IMG/VR virus record: IMGVR_UViG_3300042923_001771
Coordinates: 1 to 64,000 of that record
Source: a virus
Lineage: Duplodnaviria > Heunggongvirae > Uroviricota > Caudoviricetes
Direction: 5' to 3' (one strand)
DNA: 64,000 nt
Part shown: positions 21,780 to 63,476 of the stretch, one piece after another
Numbering within the stretch: position 1 is the stretch's first letter
Layout: every line of letters begins with the position of its first letter
Notes under the pieces: generated by a model
Told to the model about the DNA's origin: nothing
Databases searched by the model: none
Seen by the model: the letters and a program-made list of their open reading frames with translations, nothing else
Made by a program: the position numbers and the translations under genes

Positions 21780-22046
21780 TTAATCTTCATTTTTAAATCT
21801 TGCAGCTTCAACCTTAAAATCATGATAACAATAATGACAAACTATTGCTGTTTGTAGAATTTCATTTGAACATTTAGGACAAACCTTTTTAGCTTTAATT
21901 TTTTTTGGTAAGCAAGCTATGATAATAAGACCAACAACGCCAGTTAAGATACCAAGAAAGACCCAAAGCCAAACTCTTCTACCTTTTGCATTAGCAATTA
22001 ATCCACAAAATAAACCAAAAAGAAGCCAAAAAAATACCATTTCCAT
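21780..22046 (-). CDS. membrane-anchored Zn-ribbon protein
   Basis: Two TM helices then CPKCSNE..CHYCYH. Confidence 0.55.
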   Translation of the reverse strand: MEMVFFWLLFGLFCGLIANAKGRRVWLWVFLGILTGVVGLIIIACLPKKIKAKKVCPKCSNEILQTAIVCHYCYHDFKVEAARFKNED

Positions 22047-42937: not shown

Positions 42938-43306
42938 TTGGAACAAGACGTAGAGCTTTTAAGAAGTGAAATTTATCAACTTAGAAACGAAATCTATCAA
43001 CTTAGAACTGAAGTTGGTCAACTAAAGTTAGATTCAGATAGTTTAGAAAATAAAATATCAAATCAACACACCGTTTTGATTCAAGCCATAAATATGCAGA
43101 TAAACTTGTTAAACCAAATGAATCAAACTATTGGTTCATTAAACAGCAAGTTGTCAGATGTTGAAATTAAAACCAACTACACTGATGATGCTATTAAGGA
43201 ATTAGCAGATGCGAATAATGGTATAATTCAAGAACTTCATGAAATGAAAAGTTCAATTGATACTATGAAATTTTACACACTTGGCTACAATCCCAATCAA
43301 GGCTAG
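42938..43306 (+). CDS. coiled-coil protein
   Basis: Heptad repeats SEIYQLRNEIYQLRTEVGQL; TTG after gggagg. Confidence 0.5.
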   Translation: MEQDVELLRSEIYQLRNEIYQLRTEVGQLKLDSDSLENKISNQHTVLIQAINMQINLLNQMNQTIGSLNSKLSDVEIKTNYTDDAIKELADANNGIIQELHEMKSSIDTMKFYTLGYNPNQG

Positions 43307-43401
43307 TTATAAATCATAGATTTAAATGTTATTTAAATAGTGTCACGTCGGCTGGTTTAGTCTATTTAAATCATAACTTCAACTAATGGTGGTGGTTGGA
43401 A

Positions 43402-43647
43402 ATGGGAGCAGAACCCGGGAGAATTGATTATAAGAAGAATGATAGAGTCATTGACTCTGCATGGGATGAATTTTCTGAGTATATTGGAGAAAACAAAATC
43501 AAAACTCCGCTCGCATTAGAAGAATTTGAGCAGATTTTTTCAGAGCTAAATAAGAATGGTGAGTACACAATGTGGAAAGATTTAATTCTACAATCTTTCA
43601 GATACGATTCATATTCTTGGCCGCTCGTTGAAAGAACCCTTAGTTAA
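43402..43647 (+). CDS. hypothetical protein
   Basis: ATG 9 nt after ggtgg. Confidence 0.5.
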   Translation: MGAEPGRIDYKKNDRVIDSAWDEFSEYIGENKIKTPLALEEFEQIFSELNKNGEYTMWKDLILQSFRYDSYSWPLVERTLS

Positions 43648-43667: not shown

Positions 43668-43754
43668 AAACAATTTTCTCTTTTACATAAAATAATACAT
43701 AGATTCAGCATTATTCAATAATAGAATAATTGCACACAAGAGAGGGCTGAGTTT

Positions 43755-44973: not shown

Positions 44974-46632
44974 TTGACTAAATATATCTTTGTAACTGGT
45001 GGAAATATTTCTGGATTAGGGAAAGGTGTAGCTTGTGCTAGCATTGGAATGATGCTGAGAGAACATGGGTATAAAATTACCCATAAAAAAGCCGATCCAT
45101 ACTTAAATATCGATCCTGGTACCCAAAACCCATTAGAACATGGTGAATGCTATGTGACTGATGGCGGTCTAGAATGCGATTTGGATTTTGGAACATATTA
45201 TCGTTTTACACAATCGGAATTCGATGAAAACTCAAGCTTTACATCCGGTAGAGTTTATAGAGAAATTATAGAAAATGAAAGAAAAGGTTCTTATCTTGGT
45301 AAGACAGTACAAATTGTTCCTCACGTTACAGATTTGTTGCAAGATAAATTTGAAAACAAAACCGATAGTGATATTTGTATCATTGAAATTGGTGGTACAA
45401 TCGAGGATATTGAAGGTCAACCATTCTTGGAAGCGGCTAGACAGTTTGTTAGAAAGGTCGGAAGAGAAAATGTAGTTTTTGTACATTTGACATACGTGCC
45501 TTTTTTAAAAGCAAGTAAGGAGTTAAAAACGAAGTTAACCCAACAAACTGTTAAGAATTTACGTAGTATGGGTATTAATCCTGATATTTTAATTTGCAGA
45601 ACCGAACAACCTTTAGCGAAAGAAATTAAAGAAAAGATTTCTCGCATGTGCGACGTTGAAGTGGACGCTGTATTTGAGGGTTTGGATGTAGAAACAATTT
45701 ATGATGTGCCAATTAAATTCTTCAACCAAGGTTTGGACAAAATCATTTGTAAAAAACTTCGTATTTATCATGACGATGCAGTAGATTTAAAAGATTGGAA
45801 AAAACTTCTTCAAGGTCTTAAAAAACCTGAAAATGAAGTAACAATTGCAATTGCAGGTAAATATGTAGCTTTAGAAGATGCTTATATGTCTGTAATTGAA
45901 AGTTTAAAGCATGCTGGAGCTTATTGGAATACGAAAGTAAACATTAAATGGGTTGATACTGAACAAGTTGAAAAATACGTTGAGCATCAACAAATTGCGG
46001 TAGAAAAAAAATGGGCATGTGACTTTACACCATATGAACACAGATTCTTTGGAGATGTTGACGGTATTTTAATTCCAGGCGGATTTGGAAATAGAGGGAT
46101 TGAGGGTAAGATACTTAGTGTTAAATATGCTAGAGAGAGTAATATACCATTCCTTGGAATTTGTTTGGGAATGCAGGTTGCGACCATTGAGTATGCTAGA
46201 AATATGGCTGATATCAACGATGCAACATCTCAAGAGTTTAGTGAGAATGGCTCTCATATTATTCATTATCTGCCAAACCAATCTGATGAAACAGATAAAG
46301 GTGGAACAATGAGGCTAGGTTCTTATGATTGTCATGTTAAAACCAATACGTTGGCTCATGATTTATACAAACAAACAAATATTAAAGAAAGACATCGTCA
46401 CAGATATGAGTTTAACAATGATTATAGAGATATTCTTTCTAATGCTGGTTTAAAAATTTCCGGAATAAATACTCAACAAGATTTAGTTGAGATTATTGAA
46501 ATACCAGGTCATCAATTTTTTATAGCTGGACAATTTCATCCAGAATTTAAATCTTCTTTAGTTAATCCACATCCATTATTTATTGGTTTGGTTGACGCAG
46601 CTCGAAAAAACAAATTTGGTAGTTCTAAGTAA
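44974..46632 (+). CDS. pyrG: CTP synthase
   Basis: MTKYIFVTGG..GLGKG N-terminus and GATase domain (GICLGMQ, HRHRYE). The ORF-track start at 44821 is an upstream run-on. Confidence 0.85.
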   Translation: MTKYIFVTGGNISGLGKGVACASIGMMLREHGYKITHKKADPYLNIDPGTQNPLEHGECYVTDGGLECDLDFGTYYRFTQSEFDENSSFTSGRVYREIIENERKGSYLGKTVQIVPHVTDLLQDKFENKTDSDICIIEIGGTIEDIEGQPFLEAARQFVRKVGRENVVFVHLTYVPFLKASKELKTKLTQQTVKNLRSMGINPDILICRTEQPLAKEIKEKISRMCDVEVDAVFEGLDVETIYDVPIKFFNQGLDKIICKKLRIYHDDAVDLKDWKKLLQGLKKPENEVTIAIAGKYVALEDAYMSVIESLKHAGAYWNTKVNIKWVDTEQVEKYVEHQQIAVEKKWACDFTPYEHRFFGDVDGILIPGGFGNRGIEGKILSVKYARESNIPFLGICLGMQVATIEYARNMADINDATSQEFSENGSHIIHYLPNQSDETDKGGTMRLGSYDCHVKTNTLAHDLYKQTNIKERHRHRYEFNNDYRDILSNAGLKISGINTQQDLVEIIEIPGHQFFIAGQFHPEFKSSLVNPHPLFIGLVDAARKNKFGSSK

Positions 46633-46667
46633 GCTTCTTTAAAATTAAAAAAGAGGAGTGAAATACA

Positions 46668-47009
46668 TTGAAAGAAAAGGACGATCAAAAACACGTTGTA
46701 ATGACAGAGCACGGTGAACAAAGGATTAAGGATAGACTTGGTCTTAGTAAAAAGACTGCTGATAAGACAGCTCAAAAAGCTTTAGATTTTGGTGTATCGC
46801 ATTCTGAAACTAAAGGGAGTCTTAAAAAGTTAATTGATGGGCTTTATCTTAGAGAGAAAAAAGCGAATAATATTAAGATCTACAATAGAAATATCTATCT
46901 CTTCAAAGACGTAGTGTTGATTACTGTAATCAATCTACCAAATAGATATTCTGCAGCAGCTGATAAGTTGCAAAAGAATAAAAATAAAGACATGCAAGAA
47001 GTCAATTAA
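46668..47009 (+). CDS. hypothetical protein
   Basis: TTG after agaggag. Confidence 0.5.
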   Translation: MKEKDDQKHVVMTEHGEQRIKDRLGLSKKTADKTAQKALDFGVSHSETKGSLKKLIDGLYLREKKANNIKIYNRNIYLFKDVVLITVINLPNRYSAAADKLQKNKNKDMQEVN

Positions 47010-47039
47010 TTTCTCAAGTAGAAATGAGGACAAAAAATT

Positions 47040-47216
47040 ATGTACGAATGCTATAATGCTGAAAATGGAATCTTGATTGGACATTCATCCGTTAAACCGG
47101 AGAAAGGTGAAGAACATTCATTTGGTGATGATCACTACGTTGCTACATTCAATGTGAAAGACCTTTGTTTCTTTCAACCTAAAATTTCAATTTCGATAAG
47201 AACGAGCAACAAATAA
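47040..47216 (+). CDS. hypothetical small protein (58 aa)
   Basis: Not in the ORF track. ATG after gagga; a terminator follows. Confidence 0.35.
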   Translation: MYECYNAENGILIGHSSVKPEKGEEHSFGDDHYVATFNVKDLCFFQPKISISIRTSNK

Positions 47217-47232
47217 ATCCGTTCCTATTATA

Positions 47233-47264
47233 AAGAGGAGGTTTAAAAACCTTCTCTTTTTTAT
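47233..47264 (+). terminator. rho-independent terminator
   Basis: aagaggagg-tttaaaaa-ccttctctt followed by a T-run. Confidence 0.6.
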
Positions 47265-47329
47265 TTGTGAATTTTCTGGTATATTTGAATATTTTTCAGC
47301 ATAGAATATAACATAGAGGATTATTATTT

Positions 47330-47393
47330 AGTGAATCATGATAACTACAGCGGTAAAAAATGATTGACAATGTGTATTTTATCATGATATAAA
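47330..47393 (+). promoter_or_regulatory. promoter TTGACA-17/18-TGaTATAAA with two ATCATGAT(A) palindromic operator-like boxes
   Basis: Consensus -35 at 47364-47369 and extended -10 at 47385-47393. The palindrome atcatgat occurs at 47335 and again at 47381 overlapping the -10. Confidence 0.45.
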
Positions 47394-47447
47394 ACAGTAA
47401 CCATCAGATTGAAAGATGAATATATTAATATTAGGAGGTTATAAGAT

Positions 47448-47744
47448 ATGCTCTGTAAAGATTGTTTAGAAAAAGCAGCTAGTAAGTTGTTGGCAAATGA
47501 CGTAACTATTCTAGAGTATCTTAACACTCAGAAGGCAACAATTCCACAATGTTCTATATCTAGAGAGGTGATTAGAGATGAGTTAGAAATGACAAATCAC
47601 AAATGTTTTTCGGCTTTAGAAAGATTAGATTGTTTCGGTTTTGTTGAAAAAAGCAGTAGACACAAAGCTAGTAAGTATCATATAACTGAAGGCGGAATTG
47701 TGGTCTTAAGTATTTTTGAAAACAAAATGAAAGAGGTGGTCTAA
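47448..47744 (+). CDS. winged-HTH DNA-binding protein, TubR-like candidate
   Basis: 98 aa directly upstream of and translationally coupled to the tubulin-like gene; HTH-like SISREVIRDELEMTNHKCFSALERL. Confidence 0.45.
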   Translation: MLCKDCLEKAASKLLANDVTILEYLNTQKATIPQCSISREVIRDELEMTNHKCFSALERLDCFGFVEKSSRHKASKYHITEGGIVVLSIFENKMKEVV

Positions 47745-48872
47745 ATGTTGAAAATTGGTTTTTTGACAATTGGTGAGGGTGGTTCTAATATTGGTGAATA
47801 TGCTGCTGGAAAAGGTTGTCCGGTCATAGCTGTAAACAGTGCAAAAATTGATCTTGGAAAACTAAAAGCAGTACCAAAAGATAGTAGAATTCACCTTGCT
47901 GGTTGGGAAGGTGCTGGTAGAAACAGAGACGTTGGTAAGGAGGCAATGATTGCTCATGCAGAAACAATCAGTGAAAAGGCAAGAGTTAAACATGACGAAT
48001 GTGACATTGTTTTTGTCGTTGGTTCTACAGGCGGTGGAACTGGTAGTGGCGCTCTTCCTGTAGGAGTAGAGATACTTTCTGACTTTAAGAAACATGTTGG
48101 AGCAATAACAATTCTACCAGCATTGAGAGAGAGTCCAAAAGCTCATATGAATTCTTTGGAATGTTTTTCAGAAATGAGCCAATTTGAAGATTTGGGTGGA
48201 GTATTTACTATTGACAATGAAAAAGCAGAAGAGATTTTTAAAGGCCAAGACAGAACTTCAATTTATGAATTGTCAAATCAACAAATAATTGACAATCTAG
48301 TTGAAGTAAGTGCTCTCACTGGACAATCATCATATGTATCCAATTTTGATAAGAATGATTTATTAGAGGTACTAAGCGATAGAGGCTGTACCGTTATCAG
48401 TAAAATTATAGTTCCTATTGACAAACTGAAAAATTCATTAGATATAGTAAATGCAATTAGAGATTCTTGGAAACAAGTGTGTTCGCCAGATATTGCATAT
48501 GGCCAAATTGTTAAAGCGGTTGTTCTTGGCAAAATACCAAAAGAAATGACTTCTATTATTGACGTTAAAAAGGTTTTTGAAGAAACTGGGATGCCATACG
48601 ACATCATTGAAGCTTATTATCCAAATACTGACCACCAAAATCATTGCATTTTTTATACGATTTTGTCTGGTTTGGCTTTCCCAGTAGAACGTCTTAACCA
48701 AATTGAAATCAATGTTCAAAAAATCGAACAAGATTTAATGGACAGAATGGAGTCTTCTAGGAACCAAACATTTAAAACTAGTAATTGGAACTCTAAATTC
48801 AAAAGTAATTTAGGCAAGGAAAAAGAAAGAACAACTTTGTCATTAGCTGAAAAGCTTGCCAAATACAAATAA
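47745..48872 (+). CDS. tubulin/FtsZ-superfamily GTPase (TubZ/PhuZ-like)
   Basis: T1 loop IGEGGSNIG and the tubulin signature VVGSTGGGTGSG (T4). Divergent elsewhere. Confidence 0.7.
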   Translation: MLKIGFLTIGEGGSNIGEYAAGKGCPVIAVNSAKIDLGKLKAVPKDSRIHLAGWEGAGRNRDVGKEAMIAHAETISEKARVKHDECDIVFVVGSTGGGTGSGALPVGVEILSDFKKHVGAITILPALRESPKAHMNSLECFSEMSQFEDLGGVFTIDNEKAEEIFKGQDRTSIYELSNQQIIDNLVEVSALTGQSSYVSNFDKNDLLEVLSDRGCTVISKIIVPIDKLKNSLDIVNAIRDSWKQVCSPDIAYGQIVKAVVLGKIPKEMTSIIDVKKVFEETGMPYDIIEAYYPNTDHQNHCIFYTILSGLAFPVERLNQIEINVQKIEQDLMDRMESSRNQTFKTSNWNSKFKSNLGKEKERTTLSLAEKLAKYK

Positions 48873-48875
48873 GAG

Positions 48876-49145
48876 GTGACAACTATGAAATTTTCTGAGT
48901 TTAAACAATTAAAGGAAGCTTCCTCATTTGAGGAGGCTCTTCGCGAGGTAGGCAAAGTAAGTAAAAATAAAGAGCAGTCCATGGAAGAAATTGCCATGAT
49001 AATAATTCAAATTACAGCTTTTGCTATTTTGGCTCCATTTATAGTAAAGACAGTTTTTCCAGCAATAGGAATTTCTTTTGTTGGTCATGAAGCAATTAAA
49101 GTTGTAGATGCTTATTTAAATCATGTAGATGCACTCATACATTAG
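48876..49145 (+). CDS. hypothetical protein with hydrophobic C-terminal half
   Basis: 89 aa, coupled 4 nt after the tubulin-like gene. Confidence 0.5.
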   Translation: MTTMKFSEFKQLKEASSFEEALREVGKVSKNKEQSMEEIAMIIIQITAFAILAPFIVKTVFPAIGISFVGHEAIKVVDAYLNHVDALIH

Positions 49146-49172
49146 AGAGGTCTTCACCTCTCTAATTTTTTT
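49144..49172 (+). terminator. rho-independent terminator
   Basis: agagaggt-cttc-acctctct followed by a T7 run. Confidence 0.65.
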
Positions 49173-49357
49173 ATTTATATTTAATATAGATCTTTTATAT
49201 TTATAGATGCACTCTATGAATAACCATTTCGCACTCATTGAATAATCATTTATCCATGACATCTTTTAAGATGTCTTTTTAATTTTTCTATAAATATTAA
49301 ATATAATAATCAAATAGATATTTTTGATGGTTTATTTTAAACAAGAGGTGAAACCAA

Positions 49358-49753
49358 TTGTTAGATTACATTGATGAAGAGGTTGCAGAAGTAATTGTAA
49401 ATGACGTTATTGATTTTTACAATACTTATATTGCAATGAAAAGCTTAACTATGGAGAGTTTTGATGTTGAAAATTTTGACAATAGAACTATTAATATTTA
49501 TATCCATAATAATGTAAGTTGGAATGGTTATAGATATCCATCTGCAAGAATCATGAGAGAAAGCAGAACAAGAGTACGTTTTAATTTTATTTTCAAAGTA
49601 GAAGAACTTGAATGGGCAATGAAGTTATATCACATGCTTGATGGATACATATATGTAAAACTAACTAATACTAATGAAATTAATGTTAGTTTCTCATTAG
49701 ACCTAGGCTCAAAACAAGGCTGTCTAGACTATTTTAATAATTTGCAAACGTAG
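49358..49753 (+). CDS. hypothetical protein
   Basis: TTG after agaggtga; preceded by a TATAATAAT module at 49295-49320. Confidence 0.5.
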   Translation: MLDYIDEEVAEVIVNDVIDFYNTYIAMKSLTMESFDVENFDNRTINIYIHNNVSWNGYRYPSARIMRESRTRVRFNFIFKVEELEWAMKLYHMLDGYIYVKLTNTNEINVSFSLDLGSKQGCLDYFNNLQT

Positions 49754-49761
49754 GTGAAGAC

Positions 49762-50175
49762 ATGTTGGATGAAGTACAAGAATATCTTGATGCGCTCTAT
49801 ATTATGAGATCGCTAACTGGCGATCATCTTGAAAAATATAAATTTATACGCAAAGTAGATAGAGTTGATTTTTCTAGTTTGACAGCTTGCTATGCAGATC
49901 ATACTACAAAAAAATTTACAATGAAATGGATTCCCATTATTTCAATAATTATTGAACCAGATTTTACAATTTCATTTACTGGTAAATTTAATAAATGGGA
50001 CGGACCATTTGAGAAAAATTTAAATCTATATGCAAATAAGCATAAAGGATATAAATCAATAAATCCGGTGCCTCAATCAAGAAAGACGCAATTTTTATTT
50101 AATTTCTCAGACATAGAATCATTTAAAAAATTCTTTGAAATGTATTATTGGAGGGAATATGCTAGTAAACGATGA
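49762..50175 (+). CDS. hypothetical protein
   Basis: 137 aa ORF. Confidence 0.5.
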   Translation: MLDEVQEYLDALYIMRSLTGDHLEKYKFIRKVDRVDFSSLTACYADHTTKKFTMKWIPIISIIIEPDFTISFTGKFNKWDGPFEKNLNLYANKHKGYKSINPVPQSRKTQFLFNFSDIESFKKFFEMYYWREYASKR

Positions 50176-54188: not shown

Positions 54189-54980
54189 GTGTCAGTTAAA
54201 AAATATGATGAGTTGTCGCAGCGGATGAAAAGTTACGAGTTTGCAAGCAAACAACAACTTACCCCAAGGATGCCGGTTATCATTCGTATTGATGGTTGTC
54301 ACTTCCACACTTACACTAAGGGATTTGATAAACCTTTTGATGAAACTCTAATTCGAGTTTTCTGGGAAACTTGTAAATACCTTGCAGCTAATGTTATGGG
54401 TTGTAAGTTGGTTTACCACCAGTCCGATGAGATTTCTCTTTTGCTTACTAACTACGATAAACTAACTACTCAAAGTTGGTTTGATAATGGTCTTCAAAAA
54501 ATGGCATCCGTTTCTGCATCATTAGCAACTGCTAAGTTTAATGATGAAATGAAAAAGATCTATCCAGACATGACAAAACTTGCAACATTTGATAGCCGTG
54601 TTTTCTTGCTCCCGCACAATGAAGTAGCAAACTATTTTATCTGGCGACAGCAAGATGCTTCTAAAAACAGCGTATCCATGCTTGCTCAAAGTTTGTTCCC
54701 TCACAAGGAATTGCAAGGAGTAAACACAAAACAAATGCAGGATAAGATGTTTACAGAAAAAGAAGTAAATTGGAATGACTTGCCAACATGGCAAAAAAGA
54801 GGGGCTTGCATTGTCAAAGAACAATTTGACTTAAACGGTGCGCAGAGAAATCGCTGGGTTGTTGATGAAGAAACTCCTATCTTTACTCAAGATAGAAGTT
54901 ATATTGAACAATTCGTATACCAACAAAAAGAAGAAGAGAAGCAGGGTGTTAATCTCGCTTCTACATTAGGAGGAATATAA
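54189..54980 (+). CDS. Thg1-like protein (tRNA-His guanylyltransferase family, 3-prime-5-prime nucleotidyltransferase)
   Basis: PRMPVIIRIDGCHFHTYTKGFDKPFDE..YHQSDEISLLLT matches the Thg1/TLP N-terminal catalytic core. Confidence 0.65.
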   Translation: MSVKKYDELSQRMKSYEFASKQQLTPRMPVIIRIDGCHFHTYTKGFDKPFDETLIRVFWETCKYLAANVMGCKLVYHQSDEISLLLTNYDKLTTQSWFDNGLQKMASVSASLATAKFNDEMKKIYPDMTKLATFDSRVFLLPHNEVANYFIWRQQDASKNSVSMLAQSLFPHKELQGVNTKQMQDKMFTEKEVNWNDLPTWQKRGACIVKEQFDLNGAQRNRWVVDEETPIFTQDRSYIEQFVYQQKEEEKQGVNLASTLGGI

Positions 54981-55335: not shown

Positions 55336-57573
55336 GTGTCCAAATTCTACAAAAACCTAATCAAACTTGGTAACAAAACAAAAACTCTAGTTACAGTCAA
55401 TTATGAACAATCTCAAAAAACAGAATCCACTACAGTTGATTCTATTCATCACATTCATATTCTTGATAGAAGTGGATCAATGAGCAGCGAAATTGCAAAA
55501 CTTATTGAAAACGTTAAACAAACAATTACAGAAATGTCTCCAAACGATAAAGTTACAATCATTTGGTTTTCCGGTGCAAGTCAATGTAAGGTTCTAGTTA
55601 AAAATGCTTCTAAAGATGAAACTGAATTATTTGTATTGCTTGATTCTATCAAATCTACAGTTGGCGCAACTTGCTTCTCAACCCCAATGCAAGAAGCAAA
55701 TGAAGTTATCAACGATTTGCAAGCTCTTAATCATAACTTTTCAGTTACAGTATTTACTGATGGTGAACCAGTTGTTCCTTGGTCTATCGCTGAAGAAGAA
55801 AACAAAATTTTTGTTGAATTGGCAAAAATGAAAGATAAAATTTTGGCTCTAAATACAATTGGTTATGGTTATTACTACAACCAAGATTTGCTTCGTCGCA
55901 TGGCAGCTGAATCAATGTTTGGTACCGCAATTCACTCCAGTCAAATTAGTGAATATGTAAGTATCTTCCATCATAACTATGAAAAGGTAAGCGAACTCAT
56001 TTTTGATTCTGCAGAAGTTAAAGCTCCAGTTGGAACTGAGATTCTCTATCTCAACAGTTACTCTACGAAACTCGTTCGTAATGATGGACATATGAAGATG
56101 AATCGTTTGGAAAAACGTAAAAATCAATTCTTCATTGTTGCTGATAATGATTTCACATTTGAATTTAATGGCGAAGTTATTGATTCTGCAACTCTTACAA
56201 GCGAAGTAGCAGAAAGCACGTTGACAAACTTCTATTATGCTTTTGCATACGAGCTTCACTACGGTGGATATCGCCAAGAAGCACTTGATGTATTGGCAAA
56301 TAACATTTGCGATAAATACTTCATTGACACCCAACTCAATGCATTTACTTACAGCGAAGTTGGTAACTTCCGCAAGGAACTTAAGAAAGCAGTTATCAAA
56401 CCTAAATATCGTTTCAAAACTGGTGAAGCTCCAGCCAATTATGTTCCTCGTGAAGATGCACTTTGTGTTATGGATGTACTGGGAATTCTTTCTGAAGGAA
56501 CTAACTACTACGTTCCAAGTAAGAATTATCAACGTATTGGAGCTGAAGTAGTAGATAATCAAAATCTTTTCAAAGCAAACAAAGAAGAAATTCGTTCACT
56601 CTTCAAAGATTTTACTTTCAACAAGAAACACATGAATGTTTCCATTATGTTCACTGTGAAAGGAACGGTTACCATCAATGCCAAGCTTGCAAAAGCTCAT
56701 AACCTTCCTAAAGAAGTTGATAGCCACATTTTCCGTACGCATACTATCATTAAAGATGGCAACTTGAATATGCAAATCATTGAAGCTGTTCTTGATCAAA
56801 AAACATACGATAAATTTGTAGCTCTTGAAACAGATAATGGAATCAACTTCTTAACTTCTAAAGGACAAGAAGAAAAAGGCCAACGCGTTGAAATTGATCT
56901 TGCTCAATTCCCAACAGTTAACCGTACTTACGTTAACGATAGTGGAAGCATTGATAACATTGTTGATACAGTAGAAAATACTACAAACCTTGAAATCAAG
57001 CAAAAAGCATTGAACTACTACATCAAAGAAATTAAATCTCAAAATGTTGATTCTACTCTTGCGGGTAACTTTGCTGGTTTGAATGAAGACCAAATGGAAG
57101 TATTGAAAGCTCATGGTCTGGATAAAAACTTTACTTATGGCGGAGTAGATAATGGAAAACAAGAGCCAGTTGATTTCTACGAATCTCGAGTACTTGAGTT
57201 CTATCTTAAAGGTTTTTCTTCTATCCCTTCTGTTTCAGATGTGCAAAAGAAGTTTGCTGATGGTAAAAAACTTACTGGTCCGAGTCAAGTAATGAATGAT
57301 TATCTGATTGACCTTGCTCAACGCATGACGGCCGCTGGACTTAATCTTGGAGATACTACTCTTGAGGCAAAAGCTTTCCTCGAAAGCGAATTTGAAAGTG
57401 TTAAGTCAACACTCTTTAAAGAAAGAGTAAAAATGAATTCCATGAAGATTGCTAAGGTATTGACTGGTGACTGGTTTACTGGTCTTGAAGTTGATGATAA
57501 AGGTAATCAAACTTATACCAAGAATGGTAAAACATTGATAGTTAAAGCAGACCGGGTTAAAATCGGAATTTAG
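55336..57573 (+). CDS. von Willebrand factor A (vWA) domain protein
   Basis: MIDAS DRSGSMS near the N-terminus; 745 aa; GTG start. Confidence 0.65.
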   Translation: MSKFYKNLIKLGNKTKTLVTVNYEQSQKTESTTVDSIHHIHILDRSGSMSSEIAKLIENVKQTITEMSPNDKVTIIWFSGASQCKVLVKNASKDETELFVLLDSIKSTVGATCFSTPMQEANEVINDLQALNHNFSVTVFTDGEPVVPWSIAEEENKIFVELAKMKDKILALNTIGYGYYYNQDLLRRMAAESMFGTAIHSSQISEYVSIFHHNYEKVSELIFDSAEVKAPVGTEILYLNSYSTKLVRNDGHMKMNRLEKRKNQFFIVADNDFTFEFNGEVIDSATLTSEVAESTLTNFYYAFAYELHYGGYRQEALDVLANNICDKYFIDTQLNAFTYSEVGNFRKELKKAVIKPKYRFKTGEAPANYVPREDALCVMDVLGILSEGTNYYVPSKNYQRIGAEVVDNQNLFKANKEEIRSLFKDFTFNKKHMNVSIMFTVKGTVTINAKLAKAHNLPKEVDSHIFRTHTIIKDGNLNMQIIEAVLDQKTYDKFVALETDNGINFLTSKGQEEKGQRVEIDLAQFPTVNRTYVNDSGSIDNIVDTVENTTNLEIKQKALNYYIKEIKSQNVDSTLAGNFAGLNEDQMEVLKAHGLDKNFTYGGVDNGKQEPVDFYESRVLEFYLKGFSSIPSVSDVQKKFADGKKLTGPSQVMNDYLIDLAQRMTAAGLNLGDTTLEAKAFLESEFESVKSTLFKERVKMNSMKIAKVLTGDWFTGLEVDDKGNQTYTKNGKTLIVKADRVKIGI

Positions 57574-61805: not shown

Positions 61806-62615
61806 TTACAGTATTAAATTATTAAAATCAAAAGAATAAAAACTTATATTTGTTTCAAATTGTGTTAGATATTTATCTAAAGTATTAGCTCGTTCTTCAT
61901 CGTCAAATACAAATATCACTTTTGGTATTATTGCTACATCCTCATATGGTTGCCATTTATCTGTCTTAAATGTATTTGTATTGAAATACTCATGATAGTC
62001 TTTTATTTTTTTGTATAAAACATTCATATGTTCTGTACCCATATCAATCTCAAACATAGCAAAATTTTCTTTTTCTCCATTATTCCAACCAATAAATGCA
62101 TCTGGTCTAAGCGTTTTATCTGTACCATTATGCATCCATTCCAATAAAATCTCCGGTTTCCATCCAATCATTTTATACTTTTCATAAATATCTGCAAATA
62201 TGTTGTTTCTATAAACTGTGTGTCTCCAATTTTGAGTAAGTACAAGAACTTTTCTATAACCTTTTACATCAATTAATCTTGCGCCAATAGGAGCCAAAAC
62301 AACATGTGATTGAGAACTTCCGCCATTAGCCATTGGGTAGAATCTATCAATACAACCAAGTTCAAATAGTTTCTTTAGGCTATTATTTGCAAATTTAAAT
62401 GGATGTGACCTACCTCTGTGGATAATTTTTGCTACTTGACTTGATGTAACGATTCGTAGTTGATGTATTAGTTTAAGCGTTTTTAAGTCTATGTCATTGA
62501 TTTTAGCTTTAGCAAACATAATTTTCTCATTGTTAATTTTCTTAACGTATTCCTCGTATTTTTCTCTGTCCTCTCTAAAACGTTCTACTAATATCCAGTT
62601 CTGACATTTGATCAC
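61806..62615 (-). CDS. replication-relaxation family-like protein (putative)
   Basis: N-terminal wHTH-like LRIVTSSQVAKII and a conserved LRPDAFIGW segment, as in plasmid replication-relaxation proteins. Tentative. Confidence 0.4.
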   Translation of the reverse strand: MIKCQNWILVERFREDREKYEEYVKKINNEKIMFAKAKINDIDLKTLKLIHQLRIVTSSQVAKIIHRGRSHPFKFANNSLKKLFELGCIDRFYPMANGGSSQSHVVLAPIGARLIDVKGYRKVLVLTQNWRHTVYRNNIFADIYEKYKMIGWKPEILLEWMHNGTDKTLRPDAFIGWNNGEKENFAMFEIDMGTEHMNVLYKKIKDYHEYFNTNTFKTDKWQPYEDVAIIPKVIFVFDDEERANTLDKYLTQFETNISFYSFDFNNLIL

Positions 62616-62939: not shown

Positions 62940-63476
62940 ATGATTAAAAGGCAGACGGTTTATAGGATTGTAAAGGTTGTTATTGGTGCTATAAAATATG
63001 TTTTGATTGTTGCAACTGTGGTAGTAACAATGAATGCAACATCGGTCAAAACATATGCTCAAACCAGCAATGAAAGCTACGTTAATAATTGGAGAATATC
63101 TGCTCATTTTGGAGAAACCAATGACGTTCACTCAACACCACATAAAGGAGTTGACTTTGCTATTAAGACTGGTACCCCAATAAAATCAATAACCAATGGC
63201 AAAGTTGTTGCGATTCTTGACAGAGGCAATGAGGGATGTGGTAAAACAATTCATATTCGGGATAATCAAGGTCACACCATTATTTACGGACATTTAAGTG
63301 AATTCAAAGTAAAAAGTGGTCAAGCGGTTCATAATGGAGATGTGATTGCTCTAAGTGGCAATACAGGCCATTCAACCGGACCACATCTACACTTACAGAT
63401 AAATGTTAATGGAAAGCCAATTAATCCCATGTCGCATATAAAGGAAGCTGGTGTTAAAGGCATTATCGGAAAATGA
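62940..63476 (+). CDS. M23 family metallopeptidase with N-terminal TM anchor
   Basis: HKGVDFA (HxxxD) and GPHLHLQ (HxH) M23 signatures. Confidence 0.75.
   Translation: MIKRQTVYRIVKVVIGAIKYVLIVATVVVTMNATSVKTYAQTSNESYVNNWRISAHFGETNDVHSTPHKGVDFAIKTGTPIKSITNGKVVAILDRGNEGCGKTIHIRDNQGHTIIYGHLSEFKVKSGQAVHNGDVIALSGNTGHSTGPHLHLQINVNGKPINPMSHIKEAGVKGIIGK

Follow-up and report, generated by a model that had tools for sequence, protein, structure and literature searches.

Which kind of system is encoded by a tubulin-like GTPase gene that follows a small DNA-binding protein gene in the genome of a tailed phage, and what does the phage use it for? This question is raised by positions 47,330–49,145 of a 64,000-nucleotide stretch of Caudoviricetes DNA (IMG/VR record IMGVR_UViG_3300042923_001771, positions 1–64,000; the whole stretch is hereafter called the window), in which an open reading frame (ORF) of 98 amino acids is followed by one of 375 amino acids and by a small hydrophobic one. 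A preliminary description, made from the letters alone, had proposed a TubR/TubZ-like or PhuZ-like cassette preceded by palindromic operator or centromere boxes, and all elements that it described were found where it had placed them. The cassette is interpreted here as a putative type III (TubR-TubZ) DNA-segregation module that would form a conserved core feature of the jumbo phages related to Bacillus phage G (G-like phages), with a leaning toward a role in genome inheritance; the probability of this reading is estimated at roughly 0.5.

The 375-amino-acid protein matches the Pfam family Tubulin (E = 3e-15, 57 bits against a cut-off of 33) and Tubulin_2 (1e-6), and the TubZ-like_C family at a sub-threshold level. 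Among PDB sequences searched with phmmer, TubZ/RepX of Bacillus cereus (4ei7) ranks first (1e-18), followed by a CetZ (9e-16), TubZ of the Clostridium botulinum phage c-st (8e-15), and FtsZ proteins (1e-10 and weaker). An AlphaFold model built from 67 homologues adopts the tubulin fold with a predicted local distance difference test score (pLDDT) of 91.9 and a predicted template-modelling score (pTM) of 0.87, and its best Foldseek match is again 4ei7 (E = 4e-26, template-modelling score 0.79 over 370 columns). The tubulin/FtsZ T1 loop and glycine-rich signature that had been noticed earlier therefore do belong to a GTPase of this fold, and its closest relatives are TubZ proteins. The T1 loop, GEGGSN, occupies residues 10–15, and the T4 signature GGGTGSG, residues 96–102 (48030–48050), is invariant in the family. 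In the T7-type motif NFDKND, the catalytic residues D202 and D205 are invariant in the alignments and N200 is invariant in the closer relatives. The TubZ fold is thus accompanied by intact guanosine triphosphate (GTP)-binding and T7 catalytic motifs. The C-terminus comprises a long helix (residues 314–339) and a disordered tail in which two short motifs are conserved, NW.SKFK and, at the very end, SLSERLSKFK, both basic; the last 45 residues carry 11 positive and 5 negative charges and are net basic. The features expected of a type III motor are accordingly all present, namely the tubulin/FtsZ fold, the G-box, the T7 loop, and the TubZ-like long C-terminal helix H11 with a flexible basic tail.

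The likeness to PhuZ was not borne out. The closest matches are TubZ proteins, none of the 60 PDB phmmer matches listed is a PhuZ chain, and the tail is basic, whereas the C-terminal tail of PhuZ is acidic and inserts into the neighbouring subunit. PhuZ of 201phi2-1, phiKZ, and Goslar is likewise a jumbo-phage GTPase of the tubulin fold and could share the purpose of DNA positioning, although it has no TubR adaptor and acts on the chimallin shell. In the plasmid TubZ proteins, the tails are basic clusters that contact the TubR-tubC complex (PMC7762940; PMC5016525).

The 98-amino-acid protein had been described as winged-helix-turn-helix-like, and it is now assigned, on the strength of profile comparison, to the TubR family of winged-helix proteins. 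In a phmmer search of the PDB with the single protein, the best match is TubR of B. megaterium pBM400 (4asn; E = 5e-4). A profile of ten orthologues drawn from related loci matches the same entry at 8.9e-11 over residues 7–88 of 98, followed by pBtoxis TubR entries (4e-3 to 9e-3) and TubR 6tey (0.026). The profile search took the place of a fold search because a structure model built from five sequences reached a pLDDT of only 48.6. Its order of elements, four helices, two strands, and one helix, equals the published TubR topology a1-a2-a3-a4-b2-b3-a5 (PMC5016525), although the model itself is of low confidence. The curated libraries give weak winged-helix matches only (e.g., DUF4364 at 9e-4 and an unnamed PHROG), with none in NCBIfam, which explains why the phage G orthologue, gp137, is unannotated. 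More generally, this TubR-like family has been overlooked in phage genomes because Pfam, NCBIfam, and PHROG functional annotation do not reveal it. The G-like TubRs (alignment A4) carry a near-invariant N-terminal CxxC (residues 3 and 6) and a near-invariant Cys62, and most of them also have Cys35 and Cys53. The cysteines have no counterpart in the aligned pBM400 TubR and may form a metal-binding or redox-sensitive site.

The association of the two genes is strictly conserved. A TubR-like ORF of approximately 95–105 codons lies directly upstream of tubZ in 14/14 loci on contigs of 3–476 kb (the window, phage G, L002–L008, L010/L013, L011, L012, L015, and L014, which has a cut tubR 3′ end). The two genes abut or overlap by 8 nt in the examined loci; in the window, the ATG of tubZ (47745) directly abuts the TAA stop of the 98-codon ORF. 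A small winged-helix TubR encoded directly upstream of tubZ in the same operon is the arrangement of type III systems, and the proposed layout of an adaptor followed by a tubulin-like GTPase is upheld by the profile, the fold, and the pairing.

The earlier attribution to a low-GC Firmicutes phage also holds, and synteny and identity specify it as a low-GC Bacillota phage related to the jumbo phage G. The cassette DNA is approximately 70% identical to gp136–gp138 of phage G, with the same gene order and neighbours. The direct orthologues are gp137 (TubR, 52% identical) and gp138 (TubZ, 66% identical; ps43, ‘FtsZ/tubulin-like GTPase’), whereas phage G lacks the ATCATGATA boxes described below and the small membrane protein. 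Proteins identical to those of the window (P0001 and P0121) have been deposited from a contig of 191.6 kb under the label ‘MAG: Bacillales bacterium’, the genes of which are syntenic with phage G; the record looks like a jumbo-phage contig that was binned as a bacterium. Metagenomic contigs as long as 300–476 kb carry homologues with 37–76% identity. A search of viral contigs with the single protein returned no related locus, and a search with the narrower alignment A6 returned two viral and five metagenome loci.

The public annotation of gp138 as a ‘putative FtsZ-like cell division protein’, or as CetZ, suggests another function, in which the GTPase would manipulate host division or cell shape, for example by blocking or redirecting the Z-ring so that cells become large enough for the giant virion, and the 98-amino-acid protein would be no more than its transcriptional regulator. 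The NCBIfam FtsZ model TIGR00065 does match at E = 1e-16, and the lack of a centromere array (see below) would suit such a role. However, this match scores 61 bits and misses the cut-off of 295.2, TubZ proteins rank first in both the sequence and the fold comparisons, and the invariable pairing with a TubR-family protein is a hallmark of type III segregation rather than of FtsZ or CetZ. The conserved SLSERLSKFK tail is, we presume, unlike the C-terminal peptide through which FtsZ binds FtsA or SepF. CetZ, an archaeal cell-shape protein, is nearly as near as TubZ in fold and sequence, and KEGG and some other sources label the G-like proteins CetZ; to our knowledge, CetZ has no TubR partner, in contrast to the G-like loci. 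A division- or shape-directed function is considered very unlikely. The 2025 phage G paper lists an FtsZ/tubulin-like GTPase, assigned to CetZ by KEGG and with a ‘more bacterial than phage-like’ phylogeny, and never mentions TubR (PMC12484599). In part of a review covering TubR, TubZ, and jumbo phages, TubR is discussed for c-st. Comparative work on jumbo phages groups phage G with c-st (group 3.2) and mentions tubulin-based segregation during pseudolysogeny in general terms only. Systems of this kind are already known; what is new here is the TubR protein partner and the conservation of the pair across the lineage.

The genes lie in a compact plus-strand transcription unit (47232–49166) with a terminator-like hairpin at each end (Table 1). 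The first hairpin terminates the preceding transcription unit and sets the 5′ boundary of the cassette; the related loci have an equivalent in the corresponding position. Approximately 190 bp of non-coding DNA separate this hairpin from tubR, which is preceded by AGGAGG at 47433–47438. The cassette is located in a co-oriented block of nucleotide-metabolism genes, including thymidine kinase and CTP synthase, and a composition profile reveals no island. Because the base composition equals that of the surroundings, the cassette is regarded as a long-term resident rather than a recent insertion. An Rfam search of 46500–49900 returned nothing meaningful.

Table 1. Coordinates of the TubR-TubZ cassette and its flanking elements in the window.
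Feature	Position	Strand	Remarks
Intrinsic-terminator-like hairpin with T-run	47232–47266 (hairpin 47232–47259)	+	12-pair stem, 4 GC pairs
Conserved non-coding block	47271–47336	+	ATTTTCTGGTATATTT...CATAGAAT...AGGATTATTATTTAGTGAA; from an alignment of the window, L002, L003, phage G, and L004; also in L011
Palindrome box 1, candidate operator half	47335–47343		ATCATGATA; about 21 nt 5′ of the −35 hexamer
Sigma-A-type promoter-like site	47364–47393	+	TTGACA 47364–47369, 18-nt spacer, TATAAA 47388–47393; TG at 47385–47386
Palindrome box 2, candidate operator	47381–47389		ATCATGATA; overlaps the −10 hexamer
tubR-like gene	47448–47744	+	98 amino acids; predicted winged-helix DNA-binding adaptor; orthologue of phage G gp137
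tubZ-like gene	47745–48872	+	375 amino acids; tubulin/FtsZ-fold GTPase; orthologue of phage G gp138
Small membrane protein gene	48885–49145	+	86 amino acids from ATG 48885 (89 from GTG 48876); hydrophobic segment in the translation
Intrinsic-terminator-like hairpin with T-run	49141–49166	+	11-pair stem followed by TTTTTTT; 3′ close of the operon

The non-coding DNA upstream of tubR contains two sets of candidate control elements. The first is the near-consensus promoter with two palindromes, one of them on the −10 hexamer, which was read as previously described, the spacer being 18 nt. Four sites in the window, both strands included, match TTGACA/TATAAT at a minimum of 11 of 12 positions; the tubR site is among them and belongs to the two that also have the extended −10 TG. 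A standard promoter scan omitted it because the last base of its −10 hexamer is A instead of the normally invariant T, and the site is not conserved in the relatives.

Several observations speak for the palindromes as TubR sites. The copies of ATCATGATA lie 46 bp apart, and no other G/C-containing palindromic 8-mer forms a pair within 100 bp in the window; ATGAT/ATCAT half-sites reach their maximal density at 47325–47394, with five in 60 bp (0.017% of 60-bp windows equal this value, all of them here). Box 2 sits directly on the −10 hexamer, a position typical of repressors, and known TubR proteins repress their own promoter (PMC6009700). This statistical support is local and post hoc. Across the window, ATCATGAT is not enriched, since three copies were observed and approximately three are expected. 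The 12-mer AATCATGATAAC, which consists of box 1 and flanking bases, recurs at 21817–21828 inside an unrelated minus-strand ORF of 88 codons (21780–22046); this copy either arose by chance or is a distant site bound by the same factor. In L002, the closest relative, box 1 is partly conserved (GATRACTACA; GATGACTACA in L002 versus GATAACTACA in the window), and nothing is found at the position of box 2, which has no counterpart in relatives; L003, L011, and phage G also lack ATCATGATA boxes upstream of tubR. Yet the L002 TubR is 82% identical to that of the window, with an essentially identical recognition helix and wing. On balance, the two palindromes are probably not TubR sites and represent either chance occurrences in AT-rich promoter DNA or an operator on which some other regulator, of host or phage, would act; Fur-like boxes with TGATAAT half-sites are a conceivable host candidate. 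They would at best form an operator specific to the window, which is doubtful.

The second set is the conserved block at 47271–47336, which is the non-coding element that the relatives do share. Its consensus is ATTTTCTGGTATWTTT...CATAnAAT...AGRATTATTATyyAGTGAA, and both of its halves are unique in the window. The block probably represents the lineage's own promoter class together with a leader or operator segment. The composite motif ATTTTCT-N15-32-CATAGA occurs twice in the 64 kb against 0.14 expected occurrences (43673–43703 and 47271–47305), in each case directly behind a terminator and ahead of a gene (thymidine kinase and tubR, respectively), and may define a type of promoter peculiar to this lineage of phages. 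As a candidate TubR site, the AGRATTATTATyyAGTGAA segment is equally as good as the palindromes.

Several results weigh against a segregation module with an inheritance role, and most of them concern the DNA on which TubR would act. Known tubC centromeres consist of several repeats in split blocks upstream of tubR (PMC6009700; PMC5016525). A k-mer search of nine tubR-upstream regions (the window and L001–L008) detected no iteron arrays, only terminator stems and short motifs in two or three copies; four further regions were read by eye only. The tubR-upstream intergenic regions measure 92–234 bp, terminator included. A tubC-like site is thus not recognized at this locus, because there are only two 9-bp palindromes and no arrays, and the boxes are unconserved in relatives with TubRs 69–82% identical to that of the window. 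The earlier proposal that the palindromes serve as the centromere is not sustained, and their operator role is weakened as well. The analysis covered 64 kb of the 191.6-kb contig, and a centromere may lie elsewhere in the genome. Furthermore, no match to a MerR-like TubY or HTH-coiled-coil family was found in the two upstream and four downstream ORFs that were scanned next to the cassette, and the TubR model is too weak to confirm the fold. The search with alignment A6 found no G-like TubZ in 185,579 species-representative bacterial genomes, and the plasmids of PLSDB contain no TubZ more than 31% identical.

The characterized systems resemble the cassette to different degrees. The plasmid TubZRC systems (pBtoxis, the pXO1-like pBc10987, pBsph, and pBM400) also encode tubR and then tubZ in one operon with a basic, flexible TubZ tail, the TubR of pBM400 is the nearest one in the PDB, and the promoter immediately upstream of the cassette could likewise be autoregulated. 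They differ in that the cassette TubZ is only 24–31% identical to theirs, in their split-block direct-repeat array and TubY, in the CxxC and further cysteines that are absent from the aligned pBM400 TubR, and in the replicon, which is here a phage genome of 190–500 kb and not a low-copy plasmid. The TubRZ(Y) system of c-st possesses TTGAC and A/TGAA iterons, a double-ring segrosome, and a downstream TubY, and its TubR coverage spans the promoter (PMC6009700; PMC5016525; PMC7762940). Its upstream DNA is repeat-rich and approximately 500 bp long, in contrast to the short, array-free regions of the G-like loci; the identity is only approximately 20–30%; and c-st is a proven plasmid prophage, whereas the G-like phages have no such known state.

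The proposed mechanism combines what was found at the locus, namely a TubZ-fold GTPase, a TubR-family partner, abutting genes in a terminator-bounded operon, and their co-conservation, with steps extrapolated from pBtoxis, the pXO1-like plasmids, pBsph, and c-st. TubR dimers would bind phage DNA within the tubR promoter or leader region or close to it, and this binding would repress the operon and form a nucleoprotein complex. GTP-bound TubZ would polymerize into treadmilling filaments, and its basic tail would engage the TubR-DNA complex, so that phage genomes might be pulled apart or positioned. By analogy with c-st, the slightly preferred role is to pass non-integrated phage genomes on to daughter cells or forespores while the phage is in a carrier or pseudolysogenic state. 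Every characterized TubR-TubZ pair serves the inheritance of a low-copy replicon (PMC6009700; PMC7762940), and phage G has many sporulation genes and a lifestyle that is called uncertain (PMC12484599). The nearest plasmid-borne relatives, found on pBM400-type plasmids of P. megaterium, point in the same direction, as does a circular 124.5-kb replicon of B. pumilus that carries a phage-type YonK-family gene and its own 98-amino-acid TubR-like gene upstream (hhalign probability 90.6%); tblastn of TubR against plasmids gave no match.

Relaxase and type IV secretion system (T4SS)-like genes nearby are also counted for inheritance. Approximately 13 kb downstream in the window, a Replic_Relax gene (E = 9e-25; 61806–62615, minus strand) and an M23 peptidase gene at the edge (62940–63476, plus strand) are found. 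In other G-like phages, conjugation-like genes near the cassette include a Replic_Relax relaxase, PhageMetallopep, T4SS_pilin, TrbL, and VirB4/TraG-like ATPases (L005, 5150–9113; L006, 5109–9116; L007, 7102–8883; L008, 5785–8661), and the set begins directly after tubZ in L005 and L006. Phage G encodes the TraC/TraD-like gp155–156, the function of which in phages is called entirely unknown (PMC12484599). A bolder and unlikely proposal is that G-like megaphages are not simply lytic and that a TubR-TubZ spindle maintains the 200–500-kb chromosome in a plasmid-like manner across host division and during sporulation, or hands it to the neighbouring, phage-encoded relaxase and T4SS-like machinery for virion-free transfer, in either case with a minimal or dispersed centromere that resembles no known tubC.

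The same two proteins may instead be used in lytic growth only, TubR-tethered filaments positioning or separating replicating genomes or the replication factory inside the large host cell without a nuclear shell. Such a use would be PhuZ-like in purpose and analogous to that of the actin-like AlpC and its adaptor AlpA in viral DNA replication of prophage CGP3; PhuZ (PMC7950403) and AlpAC (PMC4446434) provide the precedents. The co-oriented nucleotide-metabolism neighbours are typical of early or middle lytic genes, the promoter is strong and of host type, and lysogeny has never been seen for phage G in 50 years. The absence of G-like TubZ from the bacterial representatives and plasmids, and the short upstream regions without tubC arrays, unlike those of inheritance-type systems, fit this alternative too. 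However, it departs from all experimentally characterized TubR-TubZ pairs, which act in low-copy replicon inheritance (PMC6009700; PMC7762940). The 375-amino-acid protein is structurally far from PhuZ, and phage G, which the literature uses as a comparator outside the chimallin-encoding phages, is reported to lack chimallin and therefore has no shell to push. Exclusively lytic use is a tentative alternative, and inheritance of non-integrated genomes is slightly preferred to it.

The distinction matters because, after 50 years of cultivation, the lifestyle of phage G is still described as uncertain, and the G-like phages are the largest cultivated phage lineage. With the ‘FtsZ-like’ gene regarded as the motor of a complete TubR-TubZ pair, plasmid-like persistence and segregation, for example during sporulation, can be tested against a lytic spindle without a phage nucleus. 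Type III segregation would also be extended to a divergent clade that apparently lacks the canonical tubC array and TubY; if this is experimentally true, it would show how little TubZ-driven DNA transport needs.

The third ORF of the operon encodes a small protein with a hydrophobic segment, as the preliminary description had noticed. Its start is more probably ATG 48885, with GAGGTG (48873–48878) as the ribosome-binding site, than the GTG at 48876, 4 nt past the tubZ stop, that had been assumed. The protein is 31% identical to the ORF after tubZ in L002, matches nothing in the family libraries, and found no match by tblastn among deposited phages, phage G included; it is a lineage-specific accessory and not a conserved part of the module.

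Other repeats and genes surround the operon. Directly 3′ of it, between the terminator-like hairpins at 49141–49166 and 49258–49275, a non-coding 22-bp direct repeat (GCACTCTATGAATAACCATTT / GCACTCATTGAATAATCATTT) occupies 49209–49251; it has no Rfam match and could be a protein-binding site or a small transcript. It was rejected as an alternative centromere, having two copies only. The threefold 21-nt tandem repeat at 42962–43023 was likewise rejected: it lies within the ORF 42938–43306 and encodes a heptad-like peptide repeat (…EIYQLRNEIYQLRTEV…), that is, a coding coiled coil and not a DNA iteron array. The palindrome ATTTAAAT occurs three times within approximately 50 bp at 43320–43371, in the intergenic region between this ORF and the ORF 43396–43647. 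Between the cassette and the relaxase gene, the window encodes a Thg1-like tRNA-His guanylyltransferase (54189–54980; Pfam Thg1, 3e-33) and a 745-amino-acid protein with a von Willebrand A domain (55336–57573).

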